Origin: Escherichia phage V18 | Sequence record: NC_041937.1 | Strand: one strand, 5' to 3' | Length of the DNA: 64,000 nucleotides | Shown: positions 32,277 through 64,000 of the stretch, in pieces | Layout: every line of letters begins with the position of its first letter | Numbering within the stretch: position 1 is the first letter of the stretch | The notes under the pieces: model-generated | Database searches by the model: none | Told to the model about the DNA's origin: nothing | Seen by the model: only the letters and a program-made list of their open reading frames with translations | Translations under genes and position numbers: made by a program

Positions 32277-33598
32277 TGCATCAGATCAAAACAACACTGT
32301 ACGCACTGAACAAAGATGGCAGCTACCAACAGTGGAAAGTATTCACGGATGGTGATAAGGTTATCGTAGAGTTTGGCAAGCTTGATGGTAAATTGCAATA
32401 CAAAGAGACGATCTGCACACCTAAGAACGTTGGTCGCGCCAATGAAACTACAGCTGAGCAACAGGCCGAGCTGGAAGCGATCAGTAAGTGGGAAAAACAG
32501 GTCCGACTCGGGTACGTGGAGAGTATGGAAGATTGTGAGCAAGGTGTTGATCTTTTACCAATGTTAGTGCATGACTACCTGAAGCGTGGCAAGGCACTTA
32601 AATTACCTTGCTGGATCTTGCGTAAGTTAGATGGCCTTCGTCTACTTGTTGTTTTCCAGAATGGTGAGCCTAAATTTATTTCCCGTGGTAATAAATCCTA
32701 CCCTATTCAAGGAAAGCTTTTGGAGCAACTTCGCTCTTTCCACCTAACCACCGGGATTAAACAGCTCGACGGAGAGCTCTATATTCATGGTCTGCCTCTG
32801 CAGAAAATAGTGTCTCTTGCTAAACGGTGGCGCACACAGGAAGAAATTCAGGCCGAGATCGATAAAGACTACGAGGCAGATAAAAAACGCCGTCAGGCTG
32901 CGATTAAGGCAGGTTTAGCAACATACAAAAACTTCAACAAGATGGATATTCCTGTTGATGTTGATCCTGTTCGTGATGATTTGCGTTACGGAGGGTACTG
33001 CAGCTACGACCTAGAGTATCATATTTTCGATATCCCTAGCGATAAGGTGTGGTGGGATCCTGAAACAGAGTCTGGTCGCTGTAAGGATCTTATGGAGGCA
33101 AACGGTGCTATTACTTCTTTGATGCTTGATCATATTAAGGTTGTTGATGCAGAGCTTGCATATACGGTTGATCGGTGCGAAGAGTCTGTTGGTATATTTA
33201 TGTCTGAAGGATATGAAGGTACCATTATGCGTAACTTCTGTGGTAAATATGAGTATGGTCAGCGAACATCTGAAGCATTGAAATGGAAAAAGTTCAACGA
33301 CGCAGAGGTGAAAGTTATTGACGTTGAGAAAGATAAGAATGATGAAGGTGTTCTTATCTGTGTTGACAAGGAAGGTGTTGTTGTTAAAATGAAGATGAAA
33401 GGCACGCACGAGGAGCGTAGCTATGACAGGATGCAGGAAATGATCGGCAAGTTTGTCACCTTCAAATATCAAGCAAGGACAGAAGACAACAACTACCAAT
33501 TCCCGGAGTGGTGGGATGCTGTATGCGTCAGAAAATCCGCAGAATATGCAAAACATGATGATTCGTTGGAAGAGTGGTTTAATCGGAGGTTTAAATGA
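32276..33598 (+). CDS. ATP-dependent DNA ligase
   Basis: 440 aa; motif I KLDGLR, motif IV EGYEGTIMR, motif V KWKKF. Confidence 0.75.
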   Translation: MHQIKTTLYALNKDGSYQQWKVFTDGDKVIVEFGKLDGKLQYKETICTPKNVGRANETTAEQQAELEAISKWEKQVRLGYVESMEDCEQGVDLLPMLVHDYLKRGKALKLPCWILRKLDGLRLLVVFQNGEPKFISRGNKSYPIQGKLLEQLRSFHLTTGIKQLDGELYIHGLPLQKIVSLAKRWRTQEEIQAEIDKDYEADKKRRQAAIKAGLATYKNFNKMDIPVDVDPVRDDLRYGGYCSYDLEYHIFDIPSDKVWWDPETESGRCKDLMEANGAITSLMLDHIKVVDAELAYTVDRCEESVGIFMSEGYEGTIMRNFCGKYEYGQRTSEALKWKKFNDAEVKVIDVEKDKNDEGVLICVDKEGVVVKMKMKGTHEERSYDRMQEMIGKFVTFKYQARTEDNNYQFPEWWDAVCVRKSAEYAKHDDSLEEWFNRRFK

Positions 33599-34074
33599 AG
33601 CTAGATAAAAATGTACAATTGAGAGCATTTTTTTCGATGATTTCACACTCAGAAGGTACTGACAGGTATGGTGGCGAAGATGCTTCGTACCACATCCTTG
33701 TTGGTGGAAAATACATAGAGGATCTCAGCAGGCATCCCGGTATTTATGTCAAATTAAGACCGGGCCTTACCTCTTCAGCATTTGGCAGATACCAAATTCT
33801 GGAGAAATACGCTAAGCATTACATGAAGCAGCTTGGCTTAAGAGATTTTGGTCCGGCAAGTCAAGATGCCATAGCAAAACAGTTGATCCGCGAATGTAAA
33901 GCCCTTGATGACATTTATGAAGGAAGGATCCGTTCAGCTATCTATAAATGCCGTAGCCGTTGGGCAAGTTTCCCACCACCACCGGGGGCTGGTAAACTGT
34001 ATGATCAGCGTGTAGAAAACATAGAGAAGATGCTGGACGTCTTCCGAAAAGCCGGAGGCACAGTACTGGATTAA
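33595..34074 (+). CDS. endolysin (lambda R-like lytic transglycosylase)
   Basis: Aligns by eye with lambda R: SHSEGTD, ILVGG, SSAFGRYQIL, KQLGLRDFGPASQDAIA, WASFPPPPGAG, KAGGTV. Confidence 0.75.
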   Translation: MKLDKNVQLRAFFSMISHSEGTDRYGGEDASYHILVGGKYIEDLSRHPGIYVKLRPGLTSSAFGRYQILEKYAKHYMKQLGLRDFGPASQDAIAKQLIRECKALDDIYEGRIRSAIYKCRSRWASFPPPPGAGKLYDQRVENIEKMLDVFRKAGGTVLD

Positions 34075-34137: not shown

Positions 34138-34344
34138 ATGAAAGATTTTCTGTTGGCAATTTTGTTCATGGCGGCATGTCTGGCCTGTGGTGTAGTGTTT
34201 GCAGGTGAAACAGCGTATCTTGTCGATGTATATCGGGACAATGGTAAACGTATTTGCCTTTATGAGACAAGCCAAGGTGAGCTCTACGAGCTTGTGAAAC
34301 AAGGCGAGGCAGGTTCCTGCCCTCGCACCCATTTCTTTGAATAA
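34138..34344 (+). CDS. small secreted/membrane protein (signal peptide or lipoprotein-like)
   Basis: 68 aa; N-terminal hydrophobic segment LLAILFMAACLACGVV; preceded by sigma70-like promoter; could be lysis-associated. Confidence 0.4.
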   Translation: MKDFLLAILFMAACLACGVVFAGETAYLVDVYRDNGKRICLYETSQGELYELVKQGEAGSCPRTHFFE

Positions 34345-49871: not shown

Positions 49872-49985
49872 ATGTCATCAGGTATTTATAAAATTTGCAA
49901 GTGTGGTTGTCGTTGCAATCTTCGTTGGTGCAAGGCACTAGACGATTTTATTTGGCATTGCCCTAAATGTGATGCGGAGTATCTA
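49872..49985 (+). CDS. small Cys-rich zinc-ribbon protein (37 aa)
   Basis: MSSGIYKICKCGCRCNLRWCKALDDFIWHCPKCDAEYL; AGGAGG RBS; stop overlaps nrdG start. Confidence 0.3.
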
Positions 49986-50458
49986 TGAACATTGTCGGAT
50001 ACACAGAAATATCTTACACCGAAGGGCCAGGTATTAGAACTGCCTTGTGGGTATCTGGGTGCCCACACGCTTGCCCTGGTTGCTTTAATCAGGCATTTTG
50101 GTCAAAAGATAAGGGGAGGGAGTTCACTGAAGAAGATTTGCAAAAAATCTTGTCAGATTTAGATAACCTGTCTGTGTGCGGTATCTCTCTGCTGGGTGGA
50201 GAACCCTTAGCATACTATAATGAGCCAGATATTATTAGCCTGATGGAGAAAATTAAGGAAAAATTTGGTGACAAGAAAACTATTCTTGTATATACTGGGT
50301 TCACATTTGACCATATCTCTAGTGATGTTCTTAAACTGGCTGATATCATCATTGACGGTAAGTATGTAAAAGATTTACCAACCAAGAAACCGTTCCGAGG
50401 CAGCGATAACCAAAGAATGTTTAAAAAAGTAGCAGGCGGTTGGGTTCAGGTAGACTAG
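49985..50458 (+). CDS. nrdG: anaerobic ribonucleotide reductase activating protein (radical SAM)
   Basis: Cys cluster GCPHACPGC near N-terminus; 157 aa; adjacent to nrdD. Confidence 0.75.
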   Translation: MNIVGYTEISYTEGPGIRTALWVSGCPHACPGCFNQAFWSKDKGREFTEEDLQKILSDLDNLSVCGISLLGGEPLAYYNEPDIISLMEKIKEKFGDKKTILVYTGFTFDHISSDVLKLADIIIDGKYVKDLPTKKPFRGSDNQRMFKKVAGGWVQVD

Positions 50459-54195: not shown

Positions 54196-54471
54196 TTGTG
54201 TATTGTTGTTCTCAACAAGGGGGAGTCATTTATGTACAAGTCATTTTCAATTTACTCAAGACAGGGGAAACACTACACAGAGATCCTGATCACTCAGAAA
54301 AAATCTGTAGAAGGTGAGTGGGAATATCACCATAAAATGTTGCGTCCAGATTGGGTTTTTGATAGACTTATTGCCATGATCCCTCTTGGAGAAGTATATC
54401 CTCTGACAGGCGGGAGGGATGTTTGGGATTTAATTGCTTACATAGATTCATTTAAGGAGCCCAGTGTATGA
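54196..54471 (+). CDS. hypothetical protein
   Basis: 91 aa ORF. Confidence 0.35.
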   Translation: MCIVVLNKGESFMYKSFSIYSRQGKHYTEILITQKKSVEGEWEYHHKMLRPDWVFDRLIAMIPLGEVYPLTGGRDVWDLIAYIDSFKEPSV

Positions 54472-54869
54472 AGATTGAGATCACCAAAGAAGGCAAGAAA
54501 GTGTCTGGCGACTATGCAACAGTAATTCGGGATTTAATGTTTGAAGCCACCAAGATCGGTACATCTAAAGTTGGTCAAACTGTTAGTGTGCAAAGTAATA
54601 TCGCCACAGGAGAGAAGGTATTCATTGTGGTCAAAGGGCAGGATCCTGTGGAAGGAACAGTGGGCCGAGGAGGTTACCTGTGCATTTCTGAAGAGCCTCG
54701 TATGCTAGTGGCTGACTCCGCTACTATAGGTGGGAAACGTGTGTGCGAGGCGGATGAGGTAATGATTATCCAGCCTGTTGACCCAGATGATCCAGCAACT
54801 TGGGTGGTAGGAAATGAAATCTTCTCTTTAGAAGAGTTATCCTTCCCAGCCCCGCGCTCTGTTCAGTAA
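54468..54869 (+). CDS. hypothetical protein
   Basis: 133 aa ORF, start overlaps upstream stop. Confidence 0.4.
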   Translation: MKIEITKEGKKVSGDYATVIRDLMFEATKIGTSKVGQTVSVQSNIATGEKVFIVVKGQDPVEGTVGRGGYLCISEEPRMLVADSATIGGKRVCEADEVMIIQPVDPDDPATWVVGNEIFSLEELSFPAPRSVQ

Positions 54870-54908
54870 TAATTTATCTTACCAGGGACGGTAGAAGCAG
54901 GAGGTAGC

Positions 54909-55142
54909 ATGAAAGTTAAATTTCTTACAGATTTAGGGTACCCTTCCTTGGTTGACTGTGTTGGTAAAATTGTGGAAGCAAAACGGCTATCTGCAAACGA
55001 GAATGTTGTCCTGGTTAAAGGGAAGGATTTACTAGCTGCAGGTGCAGAGTCTGGCAGGATCTCTCCTGATTATATGTATTACCTATCTTTAAGTAATCTG
55101 CCAGAGCGAGGCGGTAAAGGCCTTGAAGTTGTGGAGGAGTGA
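54909..55142 (+). CDS. small acidic protein, MKVK...DL(L/I)AAGA paralogue family member
   Basis: 77 aa; MKVKFLTD ... DLLAAGA ... LEVVEE; paralogous to 57400-57627 and 57617-57871. Confidence 0.45.
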   Translation: MKVKFLTDLGYPSLVDCVGKIVEAKRLSANENVVLVKGKDLLAAGAESGRISPDYMYYLSLSNLPERGGKGLEVVEE

Positions 55143-55238
55143 CAGGTATGCTTCTGATTAACTGGGAAGACCTCTATGGGCCTTTATGGGAAAAGAGCAT
55201 GTATTTAAAATGGTGCGTTAATTTAGGGAGGCCTTCCA

Positions 55239-55358
55239 GTGTTTCAAGCCATGTTTATTGAGATGCTATCTGGGGTATTGTTACTGGTAGCCATCTTAGG
55301 TGGTGCAGTTCTGATGTATAACTATCTTGAAAAAGGAGACAGCAATGGTAAAAAATAA
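55239..55358 (+). CDS. small membrane peptide (39 aa)
   Basis: GTG start after GGGAGG RBS; single transmembrane helix MLSGVLLLVAILGGAVLMY. Confidence 0.25.
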   Translation: MFQAMFIEMLSGVLLLVAILGGAVLMYNYLEKGDSNGKK

Positions 55359-55530
55359 ATCTTTAGAGCAGGCTGAAAACCTTCTCCACGAGCTGGTAAA
55401 GGAGTGGAAAGTTGAATACTCAGATTTTAATGCACGAGAGGGTGAAGATTATTGGCCTACGGAGCGCTCAGAGGGCGAATGGTATCAAGATTTTATAGAG
55501 TGGTTATATCAGACGTGCGATGAGGGGTGA
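55327..55530 (+). CDS. hypothetical small acidic protein
   Basis: 67 aa ORF. Confidence 0.35.
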   Translation: MKKETAMVKNKSLEQAENLLHELVKEWKVEYSDFNAREGEDYWPTERSEGEWYQDFIEWLYQTCDEG

Positions 55531-55991
55531 CGATGTTTGTTAAATATGTAAAAACGTGCCTCAACAGTCTTGGCAGAGAGCATTGGTACACCTTGCTTGA
55601 AAAAGGGGAAATTTTAACAAAATCTGGAAAGATAACTTTTATACATAGTAAAGGTAAAGACCCGTCACGACTTGTTATAGATGATTACGTTACAGGTGTG
55701 ACGTTCGAGGTCTCTGTGGAGAGGTTAATACGCAGAGCTGGCGGCCCTTATGACCGAAGAGAGTATGTTTTCGATTCCGTTACAGAGATGGGGGAGCATC
55801 CGTCTTTAATGTTCAGGATGGTAATCAGAGATATGAGGTCATCTATAGATAGGATTGTAAAGGACATTAAGGAACCTTTTAGAGTAAAAGTTAAGAAGTT
55901 TTTCGATTCTAAGATTAACATACTCGCCGTTGCACTAGGTGTAGTTCAACTTCTGTTAATTTTGCACTATTTTGAACTACTATTTAAGTAG
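55527..55991 (+). CDS. hypothetical protein with C-terminal hydrophobic segment
   Basis: 154 aa ORF; C-terminal ILAVALGVVQLLLILHYF. Confidence 0.4.
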   Translation: MTMFVKYVKTCLNSLGREHWYTLLEKGEILTKSGKITFIHSKGKDPSRLVIDDYVTGVTFEVSVERLIRRAGGPYDRREYVFDSVTEMGEHPSLMFRMVIRDMRSSIDRIVKDIKEPFRVKVKKFFDSKINILAVALGVVQLLLILHYFELLFK

Positions 55992-56053
55992 TAGTTGAGA
56001 TATGGCACAAAGGATGTGCCATAGTGAAATAAACTAAGAAAGAGGTAGAGAGA

Positions 56054-56401
56054 ATGCCAAAGATTAAAACGTTATTACTGTGGGTAACTGTTTTAGCTTT
56101 TATAGGGTACTGGACTTGGGAAACTGAATTAAAAGATATAGGATATACCAGTCTTGAGAGCAAGGCGTGCATTGGCATAACCGATGCGTTCAGGCAAAAT
56201 GCTATGGATCACGAATGTGTTGATGCAGATATAGATGAGAAACTGTCTAAGGACAAAGATTTTTACCATGGGCATGCTTTACTTGATAGTGGTGACACTG
56301 TAGAGTTCTGGTCGTGGTTTCGTGAAGATGGAACAATAAAAACAGCAGTAAAGATCTCTAACAAAGAGTTAATGCTGTTGCAGCAAAAGGAGGCTCAATG
56401 A
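56054..56401 (+). CDS. hypothetical protein with N-terminal signal/transmembrane segment
   Basis: 115 aa; N-terminus LLLWVTVLAFIGYWTW. Confidence 0.4.
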   Translation: MPKIKTLLLWVTVLAFIGYWTWETELKDIGYTSLESKACIGITDAFRQNAMDHECVDADIDEKLSKDKDFYHGHALLDSGDTVEFWSWFREDGTIKTAVKISNKELMLLQQKEAQ

Positions 56402-56685
56402 TCTGGATATCCTATGCTGATGGCACCATGCTGTATACTGCAGGTACCAGATATGAAGTTCAGGAGAACGATAAAAAATTTATCGTAAAAACATTTGACA
56501 AGGACGACAACCTTTTGCTAGAATTGACTTACAAGGTTGGAGAGGTATCCAATATCCAATTGGATTGTGGTCATAAAGATAACCCACTCAAAAAACCTGG
56601 AATAGGCAAGGCTTCAGAAGAACGTTTGTCTCGTATTGCAGAAAGCGTTTCTACACAAAAATCTAAGAAGGGGACTAGAAAATGA
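56398..56685 (+). CDS. hypothetical protein
   Basis: 95 aa ORF coupled to upstream gene. Confidence 0.4.
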   Translation: MIWISYADGTMLYTAGTRYEVQENDKKFIVKTFDKDDNLLLELTYKVGEVSNIQLDCGHKDNPLKKPGIGKASEERLSRIAESVSTQKSKKGTRK

Positions 56686-56750
56686 AAAACTTACGTTTTA
56701 ACACTGGCGCAATGGAAGAAGCAATATTCTAAACCAGGCGGGAGGGTTTT

Positions 56751-56936
56751 ATGAAGCACTATTGCCTGTCTGGTAGAATGGGTACAGATTGTGATTGGGT
56801 TTTCTTAAAACTTGTCAGCATTCGAGAGTTCATCCCAGAGGAAGAGCAAGAAAGCGAGCTGATGTCATGGATCAACCATTACGGTAACACTTTTCGGCAT
56901 GTTAAGGTAGAAGAGTTGCCAAGCGAGGCTGATTGA
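56751..56936 (+). CDS. hypothetical small protein
   Basis: 61 aa ORF. Confidence 0.35.
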   Translation: MKHYCLSGRMGTDCDWVFLKLVSIREFIPEEEQESELMSWINHYGNTFRHVKVEELPSEAD

Positions 56937-56938
56937 CT

Positions 56939-57028
56939 ATGATTGCATCAATATTAACGTTTATGGGTGGCGTGGCATTCGGATTCATTGTTTGCCTGTT
57001 TATAGTGATTATGTCTATGCGAGGCTGA
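56939..57028 (+). CDS. small membrane peptide (29 aa)
   Basis: MIASILTFMGGVAFGFIVCLFIVIMSMRG; coupled between flanking ORFs. Confidence 0.25.
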   Translation: MIASILTFMGGVAFGFIVCLFIVIMSMRG

Positions 57029-57031
57029 ATT

Positions 57032-57403
57032 ATGAAACTTTTTGAGTGGTTTAAAAAGTTTAAATATAAAGCTGTAGCCATCGTGCCGTGGTCAATTCAG
57101 TGGGTTGATGAAGGTGGTCTACCAATACCTGGTGACAAAGATACTGGGTACTGGATTATGATGGAGAACGGGTTTGGAAAGCGAAAGTATACGTGCACAA
57201 ACTCTACTCGATCTGCCACTAACTGGTCTAAATTCTACTGGGGAGCCAACGAGTGGGGAAGATACGCCACCAAATCAATGGCACTTATTGGTATAGCAGA
57301 GTACATTGCAGCCAGAGATAGGGTTGGAGACACTTATTACTATACTGCGGACGATATTCGTAACAGTGTTTACGTCCCACAACCACCTGATGGAGACCGT
57401 TGA
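57032..57403 (+). CDS. hypothetical protein
   Basis: 123 aa ORF. Confidence 0.4.
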   Translation: MKLFEWFKKFKYKAVAIVPWSIQWVDEGGLPIPGDKDTGYWIMMENGFGKRKYTCTNSTRSATNWSKFYWGANEWGRYATKSMALIGIAEYIAARDRVGDTYYYTADDIRNSVYVPQPPDGDR

Positions 57404-57627
57404 TGAAAGTTAAAGTTTTAGATTCAAGCTTCTATATTGGTCAGGAGCCCTTAGTGGGGAAAGTGTTTACTGCTGTCCCTAACGAAGATTACCCCGACCT
57501 TTTAAAAATAAAAGGGGCAGATCTTATTGCCGCTGGTGCATCTCATGAATGCTTTGACAGTCAGTGGACCTACAACTTTGCCCTAGGTGAGGATGTAGAG
57601 ATAGTGGAGGACGATCATGAAGGTTAA
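57400..57627 (+). CDS. small acidic protein, MKVK...DLIAAGA paralogue family member
   Basis: 75 aa; MKVKVLDSSFYIGQ ... GADLIAAGA ... EIVEDDHEG. Confidence 0.45.
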   Translation: MMKVKVLDSSFYIGQEPLVGKVFTAVPNEDYPDLLKIKGADLIAAGASHECFDSQWTYNFALGEDVEIVEDDHEG

Positions 57628-57871
57628 AATTCTTGATTCTAACGTCTACTTGGGACAATCCTTCCTGAAGGGAAAGGTAGTTCCTGCGGTATACTTTGAA
57701 GGGTTGCCGTGGGATGATCCTGTGCGGCAACATCACAGTTATGTAGGCCACAACGTAGTGTTTATCTTAGGATCAGACCTGATCGCTGCTGGTGCACCGG
57801 AATATTATTTCGGGGAAGAATCCTATTATGCCTTTGGGGCAGGGTCAGATGCAGATATTGTAGAGCTGTGA
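57617..57871 (+). CDS. small acidic protein, MKVK...DLIAAGA paralogue family member
   Basis: 84 aa; MKVKILDSNVYLGQ ... GSDLIAAGA ... DIVEL. Confidence 0.45.
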   Translation: MKVKILDSNVYLGQSFLKGKVVPAVYFEGLPWDDPVRQHHSYVGHNVVFILGSDLIAAGAPEYYFGEESYYAFGAGSDADIVEL

Positions 57872-57883
57872 TGGGTAACCGTT

Positions 57884-58279
57884 GTGAAAAATAAACTGTT
57901 CAAAGTTACAATGAAAATTCGCGGAGCTTGGAGCGTAAAGCAAGGGCGTATCCCAGAATTTGAGAAAGACTTCTACGTAGTCTCCACCTCGGAGGAGGCT
58001 GCATGCTGGCAGGCTGGCTATGCCTATGCAAGAACCTGGTACGAAGGATACCAGACTGGGGGCTATGACGGAGAAATTATCAGCAAGGGTGTGGAAGAAA
58101 TTAATGTGTTGACAAGTAAAAATTTTGTTATAGTGCATCCAGATTCCAGAGTGAAGCATTACTGGAATGCCAGAACAAAAACTTGGACACCGTTTGCAGA
58201 TTCTGCTACACCACTTTTAAACCAAAAAGCTCTTGACTCTGCCCCGAGCTACGGGGTTGTTGAAGAAAAGCTAGACTGA
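57884..58279 (+). CDS. hypothetical protein, paralogue of 60089-60484
   Basis: Shared C-terminal segment (V/M)(V/R)HP.S ... YW ... WTP with ORF 60089-60484. Confidence 0.4.
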   Translation: MKNKLFKVTMKIRGAWSVKQGRIPEFEKDFYVVSTSEEAACWQAGYAYARTWYEGYQTGGYDGEIISKGVEEINVLTSKNFVIVHPDSRVKHYWNARTKTWTPFADSATPLLNQKALDSAPSYGVVEEKLD

Positions 58280-58296
58280 AACAGTGAGGTGCCACT

Positions 58297-58587
58297 ATGA
58301 TGGATTTAGTTCTGAATATTGATAACGCAGGGGAGTTTAAAGACGATGGTGTAACAAGCATTGACCAACCATGCTCTGCCAAGATTGACTCAAAATGGGC
58401 CTACAAGTTTGACGGAGAGATCTTCGCAAATGATGAGAAGGTTGTAGATGCTGCAGCCATTTTGAACGCTCTAGGGTACGACCCTGTGAATTCTTTGATC
58501 AAGGATCCTGTTGAGTTTGCAGAGTATGTTCGAAAAATGGCAGATCTTGCTGTAGATATTTTAGATACTATCGATAATAAGCTGTAA
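58297..58587 (+). CDS. hypothetical acidic protein
   Basis: 96 aa ORF. Confidence 0.4.
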   Translation: MMDLVLNIDNAGEFKDDGVTSIDQPCSAKIDSKWAYKFDGEIFANDEKVVDAAAILNALGYDPVNSLIKDPVEFAEYVRKMADLAVDILDTIDNKL

Positions 58588-58593
58588 AAACTG

Positions 58594-58622
58594 TTGACAC
58601 AACGCTTCAGATTTAGTATCAT
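58594..58622 (+). promoter_or_regulatory. sigma70-like promoter upstream of HPF-like gene
   Basis: TGTTGACA-N17-TATCAT. Confidence 0.5.
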
Positions 58623-58671
58623 TGTTTTCAAAGAGAGATAGTTATTCCCTCTTCCTTAAAAGGAACACGTT

Positions 58672-58992
58672 ATGCAAATTGAAATCACTGGCAACAATGT
58701 AGAAATCACAGAAGGTATGGTATCTTTTATTTCCCGCAAAATGTCCAAGCTGGAGCGTTTACATCCCTCTGTCAACTATGCACGTGTGAGTGTAAAAGTT
58801 GAAAATGATCACCAGGAAGTTATGGCGTTCATTTTTGACAATTCTGGAAAAGAAGTTATTGCCAAAGCTAAAGGCAGTGATGCTTACGAGGCAACTGACC
58901 GTATGGTAGATGTTGCAGCACGTCAGCTGGCTAAATGCGGTGGAAAGAAAGGTAAGGGGAAAGGCAAAGTAAAGATTGACTTTGGAGAATGA
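58672..58992 (+). CDS. ribosome hibernation promoting factor / RaiA (YfiA) family protein
   Basis: MQIEITGNNVEITEGMVSFISRKMSKLERL ... YARVSVKVE ... AKAKGSDAYEATDRMVDVAARQLAK matches short HPF/RaiA pattern; own promoter and AAGGA RBS. Confidence 0.65.
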   Translation: MQIEITGNNVEITEGMVSFISRKMSKLERLHPSVNYARVSVKVENDHQEVMAFIFDNSGKEVIAKAKGSDAYEATDRMVDVAARQLAKCGGKKGKGKGKVKIDFGE

Positions 58993-59001
58993 GGTGCTAC
59001 A

Positions 59002-59103
59002 ATGGGTGTGATTAAGAAATTAGTCACAAATGTAGAGATTGCATGCTTTGAAATTATGTTTGCAATCGCAGTTGTAGTTAATGTGTTAGGTTACGGCTAT
59101 TAA
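59002..59103 (+). CDS. small membrane peptide (33 aa)
   Basis: MGVIKKLVTNVEIACFEIMFAIAVVVNVLGYGY; GAGGTG RBS. Confidence 0.25.
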   Translation: MGVIKKLVTNVEIACFEIMFAIAVVVNVLGYGY

Positions 59104-59129
59104 TATCAAATAATTGAGGAGACCTCTAA

Positions 59130-59399
59130 ATGAAAATTAAATTATTCAAAACTGAGCTGGCAGACAAAAACTGTGGACTGGTTGAAGGCATGATTGTTGA
59201 AGCACAACCAGTGGACTATATGAAGGTGGTTCGTGATGCCCTAGGTGAAGGTTTTGATCTGATGGAGCCAGCTCTGCGAGAAGATGTTATCGAGATGGCT
59301 AAAAAGCACACACCTGAAGGTTTGGTGGTGTTTGTTGCACCGGGTAACGGAGAAGAGTTGATTGTAACTCCGGATGTGTATGAGATTGTAGAGGAATAA
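59130..59399 (+). CDS. small acidic protein ending YEIVEE (paralogue family B)
   Basis: 89 aa; MKIKLFKTE ... YEIVEE; similar architecture to 60561-60821. Confidence 0.45.
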   Translation: MKIKLFKTELADKNCGLVEGMIVEAQPVDYMKVVRDALGEGFDLMEPALREDVIEMAKKHTPEGLVVFVAPGNGEELIVTPDVYEIVEE

Positions 59400-59490
59400 T
59401 CCTGCTTGGATTAGCATACTTCCTCGATAAGGAAGATTTGTAATTATTTGTGGGAAAGGAATCCCAATCTCTTACCAGAGGTGATACTAT

Positions 59491-59670
59491 ATGATTGTTT
59501 ATTTTAAAACTTCAGGTGGATACCCTGATTCTCAAAGCTTGATCGGAAAAACGTGCACAGCATACTCACCTCTTGATGAGGAGGTAAGCGATATTCTACG
59601 AAATATGTATCGGATTGACCCCCAAGAAGCTTTGATCAAAACCTTGTATTTGTCAAGGGCTCAGATATGA
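59491..59670 (+). CDS. hypothetical small protein (59 aa)
   Basis: MIVYFKTSGGYPDSQ... ORF not in track. Confidence 0.3.
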   Translation: MIVYFKTSGGYPDSQSLIGKTCTAYSPLDEEVSDILRNMYRIDPQEALIKTLYLSRAQI

Positions 59671-59757
59671 AGTCTTTGGGAGCATTCCCTGAAGCAGATG
59701 ATGATGCCGTTTATTCGTTCATGACTCCTTTTGAAGCTATGGTTGTTGGGTGATAAT

Positions 59758-59949
59758 ATGAAAGTACGCTTTATTGGTGAAACAATTCCTGTGCATCTCC
59801 GGTCTCCTGAGGATTCTGCAGATCTTGCATCTCAAAAGGCGAGAGGTTATGATAAGAAAGTAACCTCAACCGATGTAGTGCTTGAGGCTACTAGCTACCT
59901 GACCCTGCTGCATTCTTTAATCATTATGGGTACTATTTCAGCAACCTGA
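59758..59949 (+). CDS. hypothetical small protein
   Basis: Start placed at ATG 59758 (MKVRFIGETIP) within track ORF 59731-59949. Confidence 0.35.
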   Translation: MKVRFIGETIPVHLRSPEDSADLASQKARGYDKKVTSTDVVLEATSYLTLLHSLIIMGTISAT

Positions 59950-60092
59950 TGAATATCGGTGAGCTTGTATTTATTAGTGGTGGAGAAATTGTTAGCAAGC
60001 TCGGTGGCGATCCAGATGTCTTTCATGAAACCTGTCCTTTTGCATTTGTGGTAGGTTCAGATGTGGAAGTTATTGAGGAGGTGCGGTAATGG
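59949..60092 (+). CDS. hypothetical small acidic protein (47 aa)
   Basis: MNIGELVFISGGEI ... VEVIEEVR; coupled to flanking genes. Confidence 0.3.
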
Positions 60093-60484
60093 TAAGCCTA
60101 TACCGTGTCGAGTATAGCTCGGATACTGTATACAACGTAAGAAGCAAAGATCGCAGCGACAGAGTGCAAGAAATGTATGTTCTTGCCGACAGTCCGTTAT
60201 CTGCAGCGTTCAAGGCAGGGGCTCTTGCATCTCGTTGGAAATTTGAAGGTGGATCTTTCTATGAAGAAACCCTTGAAGATTCTGTTGTTATTTCTTCTGT
60301 AGAGGTTTCAGATGACTACGAAGGGAAAAAGTTCGTAATGCGGCACCCACACAGCAATATTGCGTACTACTGGGACGTTCTGAACAACGAGTGGACCCCA
60401 GATCTTCAGAAGGCTACTGTGCTAACACCGTTTTTGGCAGATAAGTTCCCACCAGAAGGTAATTTATCTGCACTGTTTCAGTAA
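60089..60484 (+). CDS. hypothetical protein, paralogue of 57884-58279
   Basis: 131 aa; shared C-terminal HP.S ... YW ... WTP segment. Confidence 0.4.
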   Translation: MVSLYRVEYSSDTVYNVRSKDRSDRVQEMYVLADSPLSAAFKAGALASRWKFEGGSFYEETLEDSVVISSVEVSDDYEGKKFVMRHPHSNIAYYWDVLNNEWTPDLQKATVLTPFLADKFPPEGNLSALFQ

Positions 60485-60502
60485 TTTTCTTGCACACAGG
60501 TG

Positions 60503-60531
60503 TTGACAACGCCAACCCTGTGTGAAATAAT
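60503..60531 (+). promoter_or_regulatory. sigma70-like promoter
   Basis: TGTTGACA-N17-AATAAT with TGTG upstream of -10. Confidence 0.4.
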
Positions 60532-60560
60532 ACCTTCATCTTAACAAGACAGGAGACCGA

Positions 60561-60821
60561 TTGATGAAGATTAAATTGAAAAACCTTGAAACGGCAGAGA
60601 TTCAGGACGGTGTTGATTTCCGTTCTAAAGATGGTGACATCTTAGAGGTAAATATTCCAACCTACGATCTGATCAAAGGTTTTGGCAACGTCCCCGAGGA
60701 AGGTATCGCAGACGTTCTTCTAATGTTAATCGTTAGTGGGACAGTGTTCTTGGGTGAAGGTGAGAACGCTATTGCAATCCCAAGCCATTTTTATGAAGTA
60801 GTTGACGAAGAGGTGCTGTAA
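60561..60821 (+). CDS. small acidic protein ending YEVVDEEVL (paralogue family B)
   Basis: 86 aa; MKIKLKNLE ... YEVVDEE; promoter 60503-60531 upstream. Confidence 0.45.
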   Translation: MMKIKLKNLETAEIQDGVDFRSKDGDILEVNIPTYDLIKGFGNVPEEGIADVLLMLIVSGTVFLGEGENAIAIPSHFYEVVDEEVL

Positions 60822-61172
60822 ATGAAAGTAGAAATTACTGGTTTTGATGTGAATGCGGTTCCGGAAGATATTTTAGCTAAACTTCCGGAAGGTTTTGGTA
60901 ACGGTGTTGTGGTGGATGCTGTTCCTCCTACCAAAGACATTCTGCTGCAGTATGGTGTAGCAGAGGAAGATGTCGATAAAGTTCTTACAATGATGGCAAT
61001 CGATCGTGTTGTCGTTGTTAAAGGTCTCGATAATTTTGAGAGTGATCCCCTGATTATTCGTGGAGATGACTACAAAATCATCGATAATGAAGGCCAAGAG
61101 TTCTATGAACCTTGTGCAGAAGATATTCTTAACTTATTACTGGAAGCAGGCACCGAAGAGGAGGACGAATAA
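60822..61172 (+). CDS. small acidic protein
   Basis: 116 aa; MKVEITGF ... acidic C-terminus EAGTEEEDE. Confidence 0.45.
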   Translation: MKVEITGFDVNAVPEDILAKLPEGFGNGVVVDAVPPTKDILLQYGVAEEDVDKVLTMMAIDRVVVVKGLDNFESDPLIIRGDDYKIIDNEGQEFYEPCAEDILNLLLEAGTEEEDE

Positions 61173-61501
61173 TGAAGATTGACCCGTTACTGAAGGCTCG
61201 TGCAGAAAAAGCGTACACCATTAAGCTGACCACCCTGGTTCCTGCTTGTCATCCGGATGTAGGTTGGCCCGAAGGTCTGGTAGAGGGGACTGTAACAGCC
61301 GCATACCTTCCTAACATCAAATACCTTATGGAAATCTTAGAGATGGATGAGGAAACTGCAGAACAGTTCCAGTTGGATATGAAACAAAGTGGGACTTTGG
61401 TTATTCACGGGTGGTATAATACTAAAGATGCAGAAGACCCTCTGGTAACTTCTAATCTGGCATATGAAATCTTAGGGCCTTTGAACCTGGGGGAAGACTA
61501 A
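61172..61501 (+). CDS. small acidic protein
   Basis: 109 aa; ends AYEILGPLNLGED. Confidence 0.45.
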   Translation: MKIDPLLKARAEKAYTIKLTTLVPACHPDVGWPEGLVEGTVTAAYLPNIKYLMEILEMDEETAEQFQLDMKQSGTLVIHGWYNTKDAEDPLVTSNLAYEILGPLNLGED

Positions 61502-61788
61502 TGAAAGATCTGGTTAAGATTAAGATTAAAGATACCAATGGAGAACTCAGCCATTTTGGAATTAATGATGGTGACGAGCTGATCGCACACTTGCCTACCA
61601 AGGAAGTTGTAAGCAAAGCGGTTGCCGGAGAAGAAGCTGCAATGCAGGCTGCAGGTGTGGATGAAAACTATGTAGCCATGTGCATGTGCCGAGATCAGGT
61701 TGTTCTGTATAAAGCGTATCGACCAAACGGAGCCACGGAGTGGCTTGTATTCCGACCTGAAGGATATGAAATCTTAGAGGCACTATGA
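61501..61788 (+). CDS. small acidic protein
   Basis: 95 aa; ends EGYEILEAL. Confidence 0.45.
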   Translation: MKDLVKIKIKDTNGELSHFGINDGDELIAHLPTKEVVSKAVAGEEAAMQAAGVDENYVAMCMCRDQVVLYKAYRPNGATEWLVFRPEGYEILEAL

Positions 61789-61877
61789 TAAATCTTGCCA
61801 AGGTTGCAATGGTCCTGCTAATTATTTGCTGGTCAGTAACCTTAACACTGTGTCTTGTATTTCAGTAAGGTGCTTAT

Positions 61878-62075
61878 ATGAACATCCTGATGTGGGTTGT
61901 AGCAGTGGCGTTTGTTGCATGTTTTTGCTGCTGGGTTGCGGTGAGGATTTCTGTAGCTACCTTCGGAAGTTGGGGTTCTCAGAGTGGGATATTAATATCC
62001 TTTCTTTTCGCAATGAAACAATCTCAGCCGCCCTGCTCTGTAAGAAATTCAAGTGGGAACCTTGTGAGGTCATGA
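61878..62075 (+). CDS. small membrane protein (boundaries uncertain)
   Basis: N-terminal helix MNILMWVVAVAFVACFCCWVAV; overlapping ORF 61826-62140 has a plausible C-terminal half in another frame. Confidence 0.3.
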   Translation: MNILMWVVAVAFVACFCCWVAVRISVATFGSWGSQSGILISFLFAMKQSQPPCSVRNSSGNLVRS

Positions 62076-62168
62076 ACTATCTAAGAACGGGGGATATCCC
62101 TGAAAGATTTAAAAAAGTTCTTGACGGCAAGGATAAATGATAGTATAGTGACTAACAAGAGGTGAGGA

Positions 62169-62309
62169 ATGACTGATTTTACTGAAGCTTTGATGATGGC
62201 CTTGTCTGTTTTAGCGCTATCGGTATGTTTTGGGGCGTTATTCACATCTCTGGTTAAAGTTTTACATACAGTATTATTACCCAAGGAGCGCAGTAATGAC
62301 GAAGATTGA
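62169..62309 (+). CDS. small membrane protein (46 aa)
   Basis: MTDFTEALMMALSVLALSVCFGALFTSLVKVL...; GAGGTGAGGA RBS. Confidence 0.25.
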   Translation: MTDFTEALMMALSVLALSVCFGALFTSLVKVLHTVLLPKERSNDED

Positions 62310-62547
62310 CTTGAATGCTGGCGACCATGTTGTTGTCAAATGCATCGGAGATTATCTTGGATTCACAATCGGCAATACTTACGAGGCGGTAGTGTCGAAG
62401 GTTTATCATGATAAAGTCCTCAGTCTTGTATTTGACTGCGATGATGATGGGGATGACCGATACGTCTGTGAGGTGCTGGCACGAGACGATAGTGAAGACC
62501 AGAAATTCCTGGTTATTGAACTGAACGGTATTTTTGTAGAACGTTAA
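62296..62547 (+). CDS. hypothetical small protein
   Basis: Start placed at ATG 62296 (MTKIDLNAGDHVVV) with AAGGAG RBS. Confidence 0.45.
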   Translation: MTKIDLNAGDHVVVKCIGDYLGFTIGNTYEAVVSKVYHDKVLSLVFDCDDDGDDRYVCEVLARDDSEDQKFLVIELNGIFVER

Positions 62548-62575
62548 TTTAAAACAACATAAGGAGACTCTTACT

Positions 62576-62881
62576 ATGGCTAAATCTAAAGTTGAACTGT
62601 TCACCTCTCTTCCTTCTGACACTGCAGAACGTGATCGCCTTCGCAAAACAATCGAAGAACTGGTGGAACTCCAGCTTCAGATTAAAGACCTGAAAGATGC
62701 CATCAAGGATATCATTCTCGTTGAGAAGCAGGATCATCTATATTCTCCTAAATTCATCAAATCTCTGGTGGCTACAGAGTTTGATATCCGCTACGAAGCT
62801 GAAAAACGTCGCGCTAAGATTGAAGAAGAGGTTGAGCACATGTCTGAGGCAGACATTCTGTTCAAACGCTCTGTAGAATAA
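62576..62881 (+). CDS. hypothetical coiled-coil protein
   Basis: 101 aa helical protein; AAGGAGA RBS; terminator hairpin follows. Confidence 0.45.
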   Translation: MAKSKVELFTSLPSDTAERDRLRKTIEELVELQLQIKDLKDAIKDIILVEKQDHLYSPKFIKSLVATEFDIRYEAEKRRAKIEEEVEHMSEADILFKRSVE

Positions 62882-62889
62882 TGACAAAA

Positions 62890-62914
62890 AGAGGGGCCCA
62901 AGCCCCTCTTTTTA
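62890..62914 (+). terminator. rho-independent terminator
   Basis: AGAGGGGC-CCAA-GCCCCTCT hairpin followed by TTTTT. Confidence 0.55.
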
Positions 62915-62936
62915 CTATCTATGAAGGAGATTTGAG

Positions 62937-63263
62937 ATGGGTATACCGATCACTGTAAAAGAATTGAATGAACGTGATGCAGGCGGTCTATGGCCTGCAC
63001 GAAAAATACGCTGCGTCTATATGAAAGAGAATCTTGAACATCTTGATCAACAGATAAAGGTCGGCGATATTTTCGAGGTCTTCTATTCCAATCGGCGCAA
63101 CTGGGAAACCATTCAGCCTTCTGGTTTTGTTCTTGCCAAACTTGACACTGGAGAAGTGATTATCCCTGGGTTGGATATTGTCTTCGAAATTATCCAGGAG
63201 TGGGATCCGGATAAGATTAGATACGAAGAACTATTCGGTAAAGGTATTATCAAACCTGTGTGA
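62937..63263 (+). CDS. hypothetical protein
   Basis: 108 aa ORF with AAGGAGA RBS after terminator. Confidence 0.45.
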   Translation: MGIPITVKELNERDAGGLWPARKIRCVYMKENLEHLDQQIKVGDIFEVFYSNRRNWETIQPSGFVLAKLDTGEVIIPGLDIVFEIIQEWDPDKIRYEELFGKGIIKPV

Positions 63264-63655
63264 GGTGGATTATGTCTACAAAGGCGGCTAAATACTCTTA
63301 CATGCCATCAACCTCTGCAGAGGTAGACTTTAGTTTCGATGTGTTTCCACTGTTTGAGGTGGTTCTGGCATACCCAACAATACTATCTACTCCTGAATCA
63401 CTTGTGCCTGTTAAGTTGCAGAACGCTATGCATTCTATGCACTACAACAATAAATGTAGGCACAGATGGTGTCAAGACGAGGAAAAAGATTTGGATAGTT
63501 TGAGGGATTTTGACAGTCACCTTTTGACACCTTTCAGCTACTCCAACCTTGATAAGCCTCATGGGTATAGCAAAATATCAAATTTAAGACACCTAGGACG
63601 CTCTGTGGCGTCCTTTTCTTTATCTGGTGCACGATTGCATACCTTGGACAGATAA
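63260..63655 (+). CDS. hypothetical protein
   Basis: 131 aa ORF coupled to upstream gene. Confidence 0.4.
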   Translation: MRWIMSTKAAKYSYMPSTSAEVDFSFDVFPLFEVVLAYPTILSTPESLVPVKLQNAMHSMHYNNKCRHRWCQDEEKDLDSLRDFDSHLLTPFSYSNLDKPHGYSKISNLRHLGRSVASFSLSGARLHTLDR

Positions 63656-63783
63656 TCCCGTTACAGAGCGTTTAAGAGCTTCCTACAAACAAATCTCTCT
63701 TTCGAGCGTAGCGAGAACGCACGTCCGTTTTGACCCAAATCACCATACGCTCGGATTTTAACCAAACCCTCGCGGCGTTTCTG

Positions 63784-63812
63784 TTGACACATTACCGCTA
63801 CCGTGATAGTAT
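63784..63812 (+). promoter_or_regulatory. sigma70-like promoter
   Basis: TGTTGACA-N17-TAGTAT upstream of small membrane ORF. Confidence 0.5.
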
Positions 63813-63830
63813 CCACACAGTTTGGAGAAT

Positions 63831-63932
63831 ATGGAATACACAATGAGAACATTGTCTGAAGTTTTAGTGGTGATCCTGATGATCATTACGTCTATAGCGG
63901 CTGTTGCCGGAATACTCACGGGTGGAACATGA
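63831..63932 (+). CDS. small membrane peptide (33 aa)
   Basis: MEYTMRTLSEVLVVILMIITSIAAVAGILTGGT; downstream of promoter 63784-63812. Confidence 0.25.
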   Translation: MEYTMRTLSEVLVVILMIITSIAAVAGILTGGT

Positions 63933-64000
63933 TCAACACACATGCATCTGAAGGAGTGACGACATGTAGCCTGGATGAGCCAGTTAAAGAGGAAAACTTA

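Follow-up and report, generated by a model that had tools for sequence, protein, structure and literature searches.

AcrZ, MgrB, MgtS and SgrT are small membrane regulators of bacteria. Phage T4 encodes Ac, a small inner-membrane protein whose presumed target is AcrAB-TolC (PMC13250531). In the current study, we examine a set of short open reading frames (ORFs) in a 64,000-nucleotide stretch of Escherichia phage V18 (NC_041937.1; this whole stretch is referred to as the window) whose predicted products are like these regulators in size class (~30–50 amino acids, aa), in having a single transmembrane (TM) helix and in the shortness of their tails. There is no sequence similarity between the two groups, and the likeness would be functional only. 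An earlier note, made from the letters of the window, had proposed six such ORFs as genes for membrane peptides that escaped the list of ORFs because of their length. We label these by their start positions as A (55239), B (56939), C (59002), D (61878), E (62169) and F (63831), and we add a further candidate, G (61785), which that note had missed.

The window belongs to an rV5-like Vequintavirus, one of the rV5-like myoviruses with E. coli hosts. Over the 9 kb around the six ORFs, identity to many Escherichia phages of this genus is 97%, and about 115–120 deposited genomes match this region. For the comparisons described below, the window was aligned with seven of these relatives, namely I29, CarlMeissner, NHEP1, ECP32, YP-6, BP9 and Murica (88–100% identity).

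Relation to previously annotated membrane proteins

The proteome of phage rV5 has been scanned with TMHMM and Phobius (Kropinski et al. 2013, Virol J 10:76; PMC3606486), and Table S3 of that study gives the description ‘membrane protein, 1 TMD’ (transmembrane domain) to ORF131 (39 aa), to ORF145 (33 aa, the immediate 3′ neighbour of the HPF gene) and to ORF156 (46 aa). These three are A, C and E, respectively. The same table lists ORF155 (87 aa), which corresponds to D, and mass spectrometry (MS) of rV5 virions detected only the larger neighbours ORF133, ORF137 and ORF152 (PMC3606486). All six ORFs are annotated in the BASEL phage CarlMeissner (bas48_0168, bas48_0161, bas48_0153, bas48_0144, bas48_0143 and bas48_0137); in I29, the label ‘putative membrane protein’ is given to C and D. 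The rV5 reference contains B, F and G but does not annotate them. Lengths (39, 33, 46 and 87 aa) and gene order agree between the window and the rV5 and CarlMeissner orthologs, with 88–100% aa identity. We see no biological difference between them; what sets the window apart is the frameshift that shortens D to 65 aa and a private P9T substitution in C.

A, C, D, E and F each belong to a PHROG family (15251, 15151, 13956, 16755 and 34195, respectively), all of unknown function, and the profile length equals the peptide length (nearly so for F). The matches are end to end for A (6.6e-31), C (1.6e-25), the 87-aa form of D (2.1e-61) and E (3.6e-36), and for F (4.3e-21) residues 5–33 align with the 29-position profile. 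Given these annotations in rV5, CarlMeissner, I29 and the PHROGs, the present finding is a rediscovery of hypothetical membrane-protein genes that were already known and are genus-specific.

Searches of Pfam and NCBIfam (E ≤ 0.1/0.01) returned no match for the peptides, including none to a holin or toxin family, and sub-threshold hits to the Pfam families MP_p6 and YqzM (E 0.04–0.05) were dismissed as hydrophobic noise. PADLOC models for defence and exclusion functions matched none of the seven peptides (0 families). Likewise, Rfam gave nothing credible over 54400–64000 and no antitoxin small RNA, although such an absence is no gauge of function; its weak matches sit on a terminator at 62.9 kb. 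We also considered whether the peptides form an expanded family, and this was rejected, in that no significant pairs were found among them or with rV5 ORF170, ORF173, ORF181 and ORF193, which are four more small 1-TMD genes located in the other arm of that genome.

Evidence that the ORFs are genes

All six ORFs lie on the + strand where the earlier note had placed them, and its description of one hydrophobic helix in each is borne out by maximum 19-residue Kyte–Doolittle means of 2.27–2.95. One hydrophobic segment is present in each of A to G. Summed on the Hessa scale, the insertion energies of A, B, D, E, F and G range from −1.5 to −3.6, and C is borderline at +0.6. The segments comprise about 19–23 residues and, C apart, have predicted favourable insertion, as expected for bitopic inner-membrane proteins. 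Outside the TM segment, the tails span 1–21 residues (at most 14 except in E, with 21), and only A, D and E have a charged C-terminal tail.

Such ORFs are enriched in this part of the window. From position 55200 onwards, 7 of the 35 + strand ORFs of 25–70 aa reach a 19-residue mean of at least 2.0, compared with only 4 of 220 antisense ORFs (1.8%) in the same arm. The density of hydrophobic ORFs is therefore not due to chance (binomial p=2.8e-6).

The best-supported start codons (GTG for A, and ATG for B to F, at the positions given above) are preceded by Shine–Dalgarno (SD) sequences with pairing energies of −4.0 to −11.8 kcal/mol. These values cannot be told apart from those of 25 accepted genes nearby (median −7.8; p=0.20), whereas the pairing at the other 194 ATGs of the region is much weaker (median −2.8; p=0.0004). 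The claim that the ORFs have reasonable ribosome-binding sites (RBSs) or promoters thus stands for the SD sequences and for promoter matches located before E and F, whereas the promoter matches near B and C overlap start codons.

The peptide sequences are strongly conserved among the seven relatives in spite of many nucleotide changes. We counted distinct codon variants across the aligned relatives to obtain the ratio of nonsynonymous to synonymous variation (pN/pS), which when pooled is 0.21 in the proposed frames and rises to 1.13 and 1.15 when the two remaining sense frames are read. Individual values are 0.07 for A (21 synonymous and 5 nonsynonymous changes), 0.14 for F, 0.17 for the TM part of D, 0.23 for E, 0.27 for B, 0.38 for G and 1.46 for C. 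Variation is also distributed unevenly within the peptides. In A, B, C, E and F taken together, 3 of 95 positions vary in the TM cores versus 16 of 80 in the tails (Fisher p=0.0004), such that the cores are about sixfold less variable.

In a tblastn search of 50,697 phage genomes, each of the 116 Vequintavirus records (116 of 116) contained full-length A, C and E, and none of the three was recovered elsewhere. By DNA search, 113 of 116 genomes carry F and 89 of 115 carry the B cassette. Beyond the genus Vequintavirus, where none of A, B, D, E and F occurs, a regulator-like gene (62576–62881) provides the sole homology at the DNA level. In Mydovirus and Klebsiella phages this gene is surrounded by replication genes and has other neighbours, and no synteny beyond the genus was seen.

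Given frame-specific purifying selection, the SD sites, a snug fit between + strand genes and conservation in 89–116 genomes, A, B, D, E and F are very probably genuine + strand protein-coding genes. For these five, the proposal that real small membrane-protein genes were overlooked because of their length is well founded; it is not established for C, whose chances of being a real gene we consider even, and those of G are somewhat lower. The value of the observation is mainly for annotation, in that the length cut-offs of gene callers miss real membrane-protein genes of 29–46 aa that are conserved in more than 100 phage genomes.

Characteristics of the individual ORFs

ORF A (55239–55358, + strand, 39 aa) has a TM segment at approximately residues 7–25 followed by a basic C-terminal tail. 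Its GTG start is backed by the strongest of the SD pairings (−11.8), and a divergent clade has ATG at the same position.

ORF B (56939–57028, + strand, 29 aa) is nearly all one TM helix; it contains the GxxxG-type motif GGVAFG, and there is an Arg at the C terminus. It is annotated in CarlMeissner and NHEP1, and it behaves as a presence/absence cassette of ~96 bp (region 56933–57031) that is missing from 26 of 115 genomes, with clean absences in Murica (~3380–3390) and YP-6 (~3376–3389). In genomes that lack B, the preceding 61-aa gene also has its 3′ end replaced and is directly abutted by the downstream gene.

ORF E (62169–62309, + strand, 46 aa) has an acidic N-terminal tail, a TM segment at approximately residues 7–29 and a mixed-charge C-terminal tail. 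It has an SD energy of −7.1 and overlaps the start of the next gene by 14 nucleotides. A sigma-70-like promoter match (62121–62149, + strand; TTGACG-17-TATAGT, 10/12), from which transcription would begin just before the RBS of E, is not in the stringent promoter list of rV5. This site and the one before F are consensus matches only.

ORF F (63831–63932, + strand, 33 aa) is coupled to the next gene through an ATGA overlap and is disrupted in NHEP1 and ECP32. It is the first gene after a terminator-like hairpin with a T-run (63595–63614, + strand), which ends the preceding operon and for which Murica annotates a terminator at the equivalent position; F therefore heads a new unit. A sigma-70-like, TG-extended promoter match (63784–63812, + strand; TTGACA-17-TAGTAT, 10/12) lies just upstream of its RBS.

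ORF G (61785–61868, + strand, 27 aa) has the same hydrophobic character. It is coupled by an ATGA overlap to the stop of the upstream gene, has an SD energy of −5.8, and is open in all nine genomes checked, including rV5. It is annotated in none of the genomes examined and has no PHROG match. As a gene, G is weakly supported.

ORF D does not fit the description of a very short single-helix peptide of 29–65 aa that suits the others. At approximately 61960, all relatives have CCC and the window has CC. In the relatives a single 264-nucleotide ORF encodes 87 aa (61878–62140, + strand), whereas the private one-nucleotide deletion, which is found in no deposited genome, reduces the ORF in the window to 65 aa (61878–62075). 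Among the relatives, the C-terminal 59 codons give a pN/pS of 0.06 in the 87-aa frame versus 2.67 and 1.38 in the other frames, and thus there is no selection for the 37 residues that the 65-aa reading adds after the frameshift. The shorter ORF is an artefact, namely the frameshifted front of an 87-aa gene that has lost one base, and it exemplifies how assembly indels create spurious small ORFs. The intact protein consists of a TM anchor at residues 2–22 followed by a conserved basic soluble domain of ~60 aa with four predicted short helices. An AlphaFold2 model was of low confidence (pLDDT 62.5, pTM 0.33), a profile search of PDB sequences found no relative (best E 0.33), and just four clusters of at least 79% identity were recovered among 5.8 billion proteins.

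Possible functions

Taken as a whole, the observations are probably best explained by genuine genes whose products modulate host membrane proteins through their helices. The proteins of 29–46 aa encoded by A, B, E and F are formed essentially by one TM helix plus short tails, and that of D is an 87-aa protein anchored at its N terminus; after translation, they would insert in the E. coli inner membrane. The positive-inside rule predicts an N-out/C-in orientation for A, B, D and E, and an N-in one for C and G. The peptides would act via the helix itself, through specific binding to host (or phage) inner-membrane proteins, and their most likely role would be accessory modulation of host envelope proteins during infection rather than lysis timing. 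Possible targets include transporters or efflux pumps, DNA-entry or exclusion functions and membrane-bound defence sensors.

The helix appears to be the likelier working part because its core is near-constant, whereas a passive anchor tolerates hydrophobic swaps. Small-xxx-small packing motifs are present in A, B, E and F, and given such motifs together with the conserved cores, specific binding fits better than either a generic anchor or unspecific membrane damage. Because B and F are dispensable in some genomes, an accessory role fits better than a core lysis function. Regulators of the T4 Ac and AcrZ type work by helix–helix contact with a larger membrane protein, and by analogy the pattern of conserved cores and variable tails observed here would be consistent with such contact. 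We advance the mechanistic component, namely sequence-specific helix–helix binding, as a tentative reading of these sequence patterns. Vequintaviruses are candidates for phage therapy and biocontrol, and conserved membrane peptides with cores far more constrained than their tails are a reasonable place to seek new phage–host membrane interactions.

A bolder version of this explanation takes in the seven peptides of the present block together with rV5 ORF170, ORF173, ORF181 and ORF193. The rV5-like phages would then carry at least 10 unrelated TM-helix ‘ligands’ of 27–46 aa, each fitted by a nearly invariant helix face to bind and switch one host inner-membrane protein (a transporter, divisome component or membrane-bound defence sensor, for instance), with C serving as a dual RNA and peptide element. 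We consider this version unlikely. If true, the genus-specific arsenal would represent an unexplored class of phage effectors that act inside the bilayer.

Several observations weigh against modulation of membrane proteins by genuine small proteins. Divergence within the genus is shallow (88–100% aa identity), and hence there are few substitutions per ORF. The antisense frame that shares wobble positions scores alike (pooled pN/pS 0.32), so that the strand call rests on the SD sequences, start conservation and context. Small-xxx-small motifs are common in TM helices generally, and conserved TM cores could equally reflect oligomerisation into pores in the manner of toxins or holins. For G, the pN/pS of 0.38 is not distinguishable from the off-frame values of 0.55 and 0.67. 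In C, protein-level purifying selection is not seen, its insertion energy is borderline as noted above, and when 11 genomes are compared (FV3, B9-1 and rV5 added), its core shows two nonsynonymous changes (G32D and V24I) and no synonymous ones. Moreover, our literature search found no proteomic, transcriptomic, Ribo-seq, genetic or functional data on these genes, nor any on the timing of their expression, and the label ‘early genes’ used in the earlier note is an assumption.

Antisense genes were evaluated as the source of the selection signal and were rejected. No antisense ORF has an SD sequence (−1.7 to +1.2 kcal/mol); in relatives, those opposite B and D (antiB and antiD1) lack the start codon or are interrupted by stop codons, and the one opposite F (antiF) is frameshifted by a 2-nucleotide indel that is harmless upstream of the F start. 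Given this lack of SD sequences and loss of frames, and given a positive GC skew and flanking genes exclusively on the + strand, the signal belongs to the + strand ORFs. The sole antisense ORF that stays open (62081–62284, − strand, 67 aa) covers the 3′ end of D, the spacer and most of E, with which it shares wobble positions. It retains the same TTG start and the same stop in all eight genomes and has the least favourable SD energy of the range (+1.2). This ORF is probably a by-product of the codon structure of E.

The coding status of C (59002–59103, + strand, 33 aa) is uncertain, because its core is frozen at the nucleotide level and the changes in that core are all nonsynonymous. C begins 9 nucleotides after the gene for ribosome hibernation promoting factor (HPF/RaiA), which it adjoins on the downstream side in every genome. 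Its core (59027–59101) is the longest invariant run, at 75 nucleotides, in 6.7 kb compared among eight genomes with 14.5% variable sites, and near-invariance continues through the spacer to 59140. Outside the core, variation in C is again entirely nonsynonymous and is confined to codons 2–9. This pattern suggests a constraint on the nucleic acid, either alone or on top of one on the peptide.

A rival to the protein-coding interpretation applies to this ORF specifically, and it holds that selection acts on an RNA structure, on a DNA site or on the sequence as 5′ leader of the following gene, with the peptide not being the product. In addition to the frozen core and the high pN/pS, a TG-extended promoter match (58976–59003) overlaps the ATG, such that transcripts would begin inside C and its sequence would be the 5′ leader of the next gene; Glu and Asn residues within the putative helix, together with its insertion energy, likewise speak against a membrane peptide. 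However, C has a good SD sequence (−6.9, located 7 nucleotides upstream), is open at full length in 116 of 116 genomes, and fits exactly between the HPF gene and the next gene. Compared with shuffled sequences, the RNA folds with only a marginal advantage (z = −1.96), there is no match to an Rfam family, and the nonsynonymous changes are conservative (V/I/M/T). We therefore view a purely nucleic-acid element as a serious contender that falls somewhat short of being the probable answer, and a dual constraint on peptide and RNA is equally possible.

Superinfection exclusion, whereby one or more of the peptides would block DNA entry by secondary phages as T4 Imm and Sp do, would be compatible with the predicted membrane location, with the sigma-70-type matches before E and F, and with the fact that the peptides are genus-specific and partly dispensable (B and F), as competition genes would be. 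The peptides lack similarity to exclusion or defence models of Pfam, NCBIfam or PADLOC, however, and the occurrence of A, C and E in all 116 genomes is a better fit to a core infection function than to a variable competition gene. Although we judge exclusion unlikely as the general explanation, it is plausible as a special case of the modulation of membrane proteins, given that it would also operate via host or phage membrane partners.

It is more doubtful still that the peptides act like type I toxins such as TisB, Hok, Ibs and Ldr, which would entail their oligomerising, depolarising the inner membrane and aiding host shut-off. The lengths of 27–46 aa, the one very hydrophobic helix and the short polar tails are all toxin-like, and the conserved TM cores would also fit self-assembly. 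This likeness in length and extreme hydrophobicity to TisB, Hok/Gef, Ibs, Ldr and ShoB is evident chiefly for G (27 aa) and for B (29 aa), which is almost pure helix. However, type I toxins are repressed loci with antisense RNAs, whereas the peptides described here are seven unrelated sequences encoded in sense orientation within packed phage operons and with ordinary SD sequences. No toxin model of Pfam or NCBIfam is matched, seven unrelated toxins would be redundant, and early depolarisation would harm a lytic phage that needs its host energised throughout a long replication programme, genes of which (Nrd, Thy and ligase) are encoded on the same strand.

The earlier note had also suggested holin or antiholin activity. 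Holins usually have 2–3 TMDs or a large soluble domain and usually are encoded beside the endolysin. Holins with one TMD do exist, such as T4 T, which lends some credence to a role in lysis timing as holins, antiholins or other lysis regulators; T4 T comprises 218 aa, however, and RI has a periplasmic domain. As small phage-encoded inner-membrane proteins, the peptides are like lambda S, the S21 pinholin, T4 T and RI, and T4 Imm and Sp. Unlike T4 T and RI, they combine one TMD with almost no soluble domain, and we find neither the holin pattern of at least two TMDs, or of one TMD plus a large periplasmic domain, with a charged C-terminal tail, nor linkage to the endolysin or a lysis cassette. 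Lysis roles are less likely because of this single TMD with minimal tails, the location more than 21 kb downstream of the endolysin gene (33595–34071), the lack of a match to any holin model, and the dispensability of B. No gene of this stretch is called a holin in the annotation of Murica, for which RBS and terminator features were curated.

The holin candidate of rV5 is ORF129 (78 aa, 2 TMD), which belongs to the same block, although its identification as a holin is not certain (Kropinski et al.; PMC3606486). The ORF129 homolog is missing from the window; for this phage to be viable, the holin would have to be some other membrane protein, and ORF129 would not be an essential one. However, this loss coincides with many assembly defects and the viability of the phage represented by the window is unproven. 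We hold lysis timing to be improbable and disfavour the holin and antiholin roles.

Finally, the ORFs might be open by chance, or might serve as spacers or leaders for which being translated counts and the encoded sequence does not. This prospect can be set aside as very improbable, and in the case of A, B, D, E and F it is largely refuted, since the shortness of the ORFs, the ease with which T-rich sequence gives hydrophobic frames and the absence of frame-specific selection in G and C are outweighed by the 7 of 35 hydrophobic ORFs against a background of 1.8%, amino-acid-level purifying selection in those five, TM cores conserved beyond their tails and SD sites like those of real genes.

Genomic context and state of the assembly

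From 28 to 64 kb, every gene of the window is on the + strand and GC skew is positive. This arm is the counterpart of rV5 ORFs 82–163, and in collinear alignments to 7–10 genomes A, C, D and E occupy the same places in the gene order as in rV5 and other relatives, with agreement in rV5 coordinates and lengths. The arm begins with genes for ligase, endolysin, exonuclease, Thy, NrdAB/DG, PhoH and ClpP, and its terminal part contains ~40 small ORFs, including the peptide ORFs.

Two larger membrane proteins are encoded near A. A 154-aa protein with a C-terminal TM helix (55527–55991, + strand; PHROG 7821) is the ortholog of rV5 ORF133, a 1-TMD protein that is a virion structural component by MS, and a 115-aa protein with an N-terminal TM helix (56054–56401, + strand; PHROG 11867) is the ortholog of rV5 ORF134, described as ‘membrane protein, 1 TMD’. 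The HPF/RaiA gene (58672–58992, + strand; rV5 ORF144) has its own strong promoter (58594–58622, + strand; TTGACA-17-TATCAT, 11/12), which would drive HPF, C and the next gene. This site and another at 60503–60531 are the two best promoter matches, and they coincide with the annotated rV5 promoters P144 and P150, respectively.

The block also encodes small soluble acidic proteins that form paralogous families, one at 54909–55142, 57400–57627 and 57617–57871 (31–42% identity) and another at 57884–58279 and 60089–60484 (29–31%). Thus, the block grew partly via local duplication.

When CarlMeissner proteins were mapped on the window, at least 10 conserved genes were found to be split between reading frames by private indels of 1–2 nucleotides, at approximately 29598, 30059, 34608, 39690, 48843, 51252, 59631, 59895, 61960 and 63557. 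The broken genes encode a PhoH-like ATPase, NrdD, an N6-A methyltransferase, an RNA ligase, a homing endonuclease and a 116-aa protein, and also include four small genes, among them D. No deposited genome shares these indels. Given that the breaks are private and many, and that identity is ~100% on either side of each, errors of assembly or sequencing are their likeliest cause. Any short ORF of this window should therefore be compared with relatives before it is believed.

Larger differences from the relatives are also evident. At the junction 55180|55181, a segment of ~815 bp that is present in all 118 matching deposited genomes is missing from the window, which removes homologs of rV5 ORF128 (174 aa) and ORF129 as well as the 5′ part of ORF130 and leaves a 40-aa ORF (55139–55261) as a remnant. 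A deletion of 145 bp at 56705|56706 eliminates the homolog of ORF136 (64 aa), and one of ~212 bp at 57216–57224 fuses the homologs of ORF138 and ORF139 into a 123-aa ORF (57032–57403). The gene for a 284-aa C5-cytosine methyltransferase of CarlMeissner is absent near 34.8 kb.

The endolysin homolog and the NrdG homolog (49985–50455) are just 68% and 54% identical, respectively, to their CarlMeissner counterparts in an arm that is otherwise ~97% identical, which indicates mosaic module replacement. Directly 3′ of the endolysin gene is a 68-aa ORF (34138–34344) with a signal- or lipoprotein-like N terminus (MKDFLLAILFMAACLACG...) that could be lysis-related.

Among the deposited sequences that match the region at ~96–100% identity are 18 unannotated GenBank records of the MG0656xx series (e.g. 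MG065644, MG065659 and MG065674), which are titled ‘Campylobacter phage’ and give Campylobacter jejuni as host. These records are probably mislabelled or contaminant coliphage genomes.

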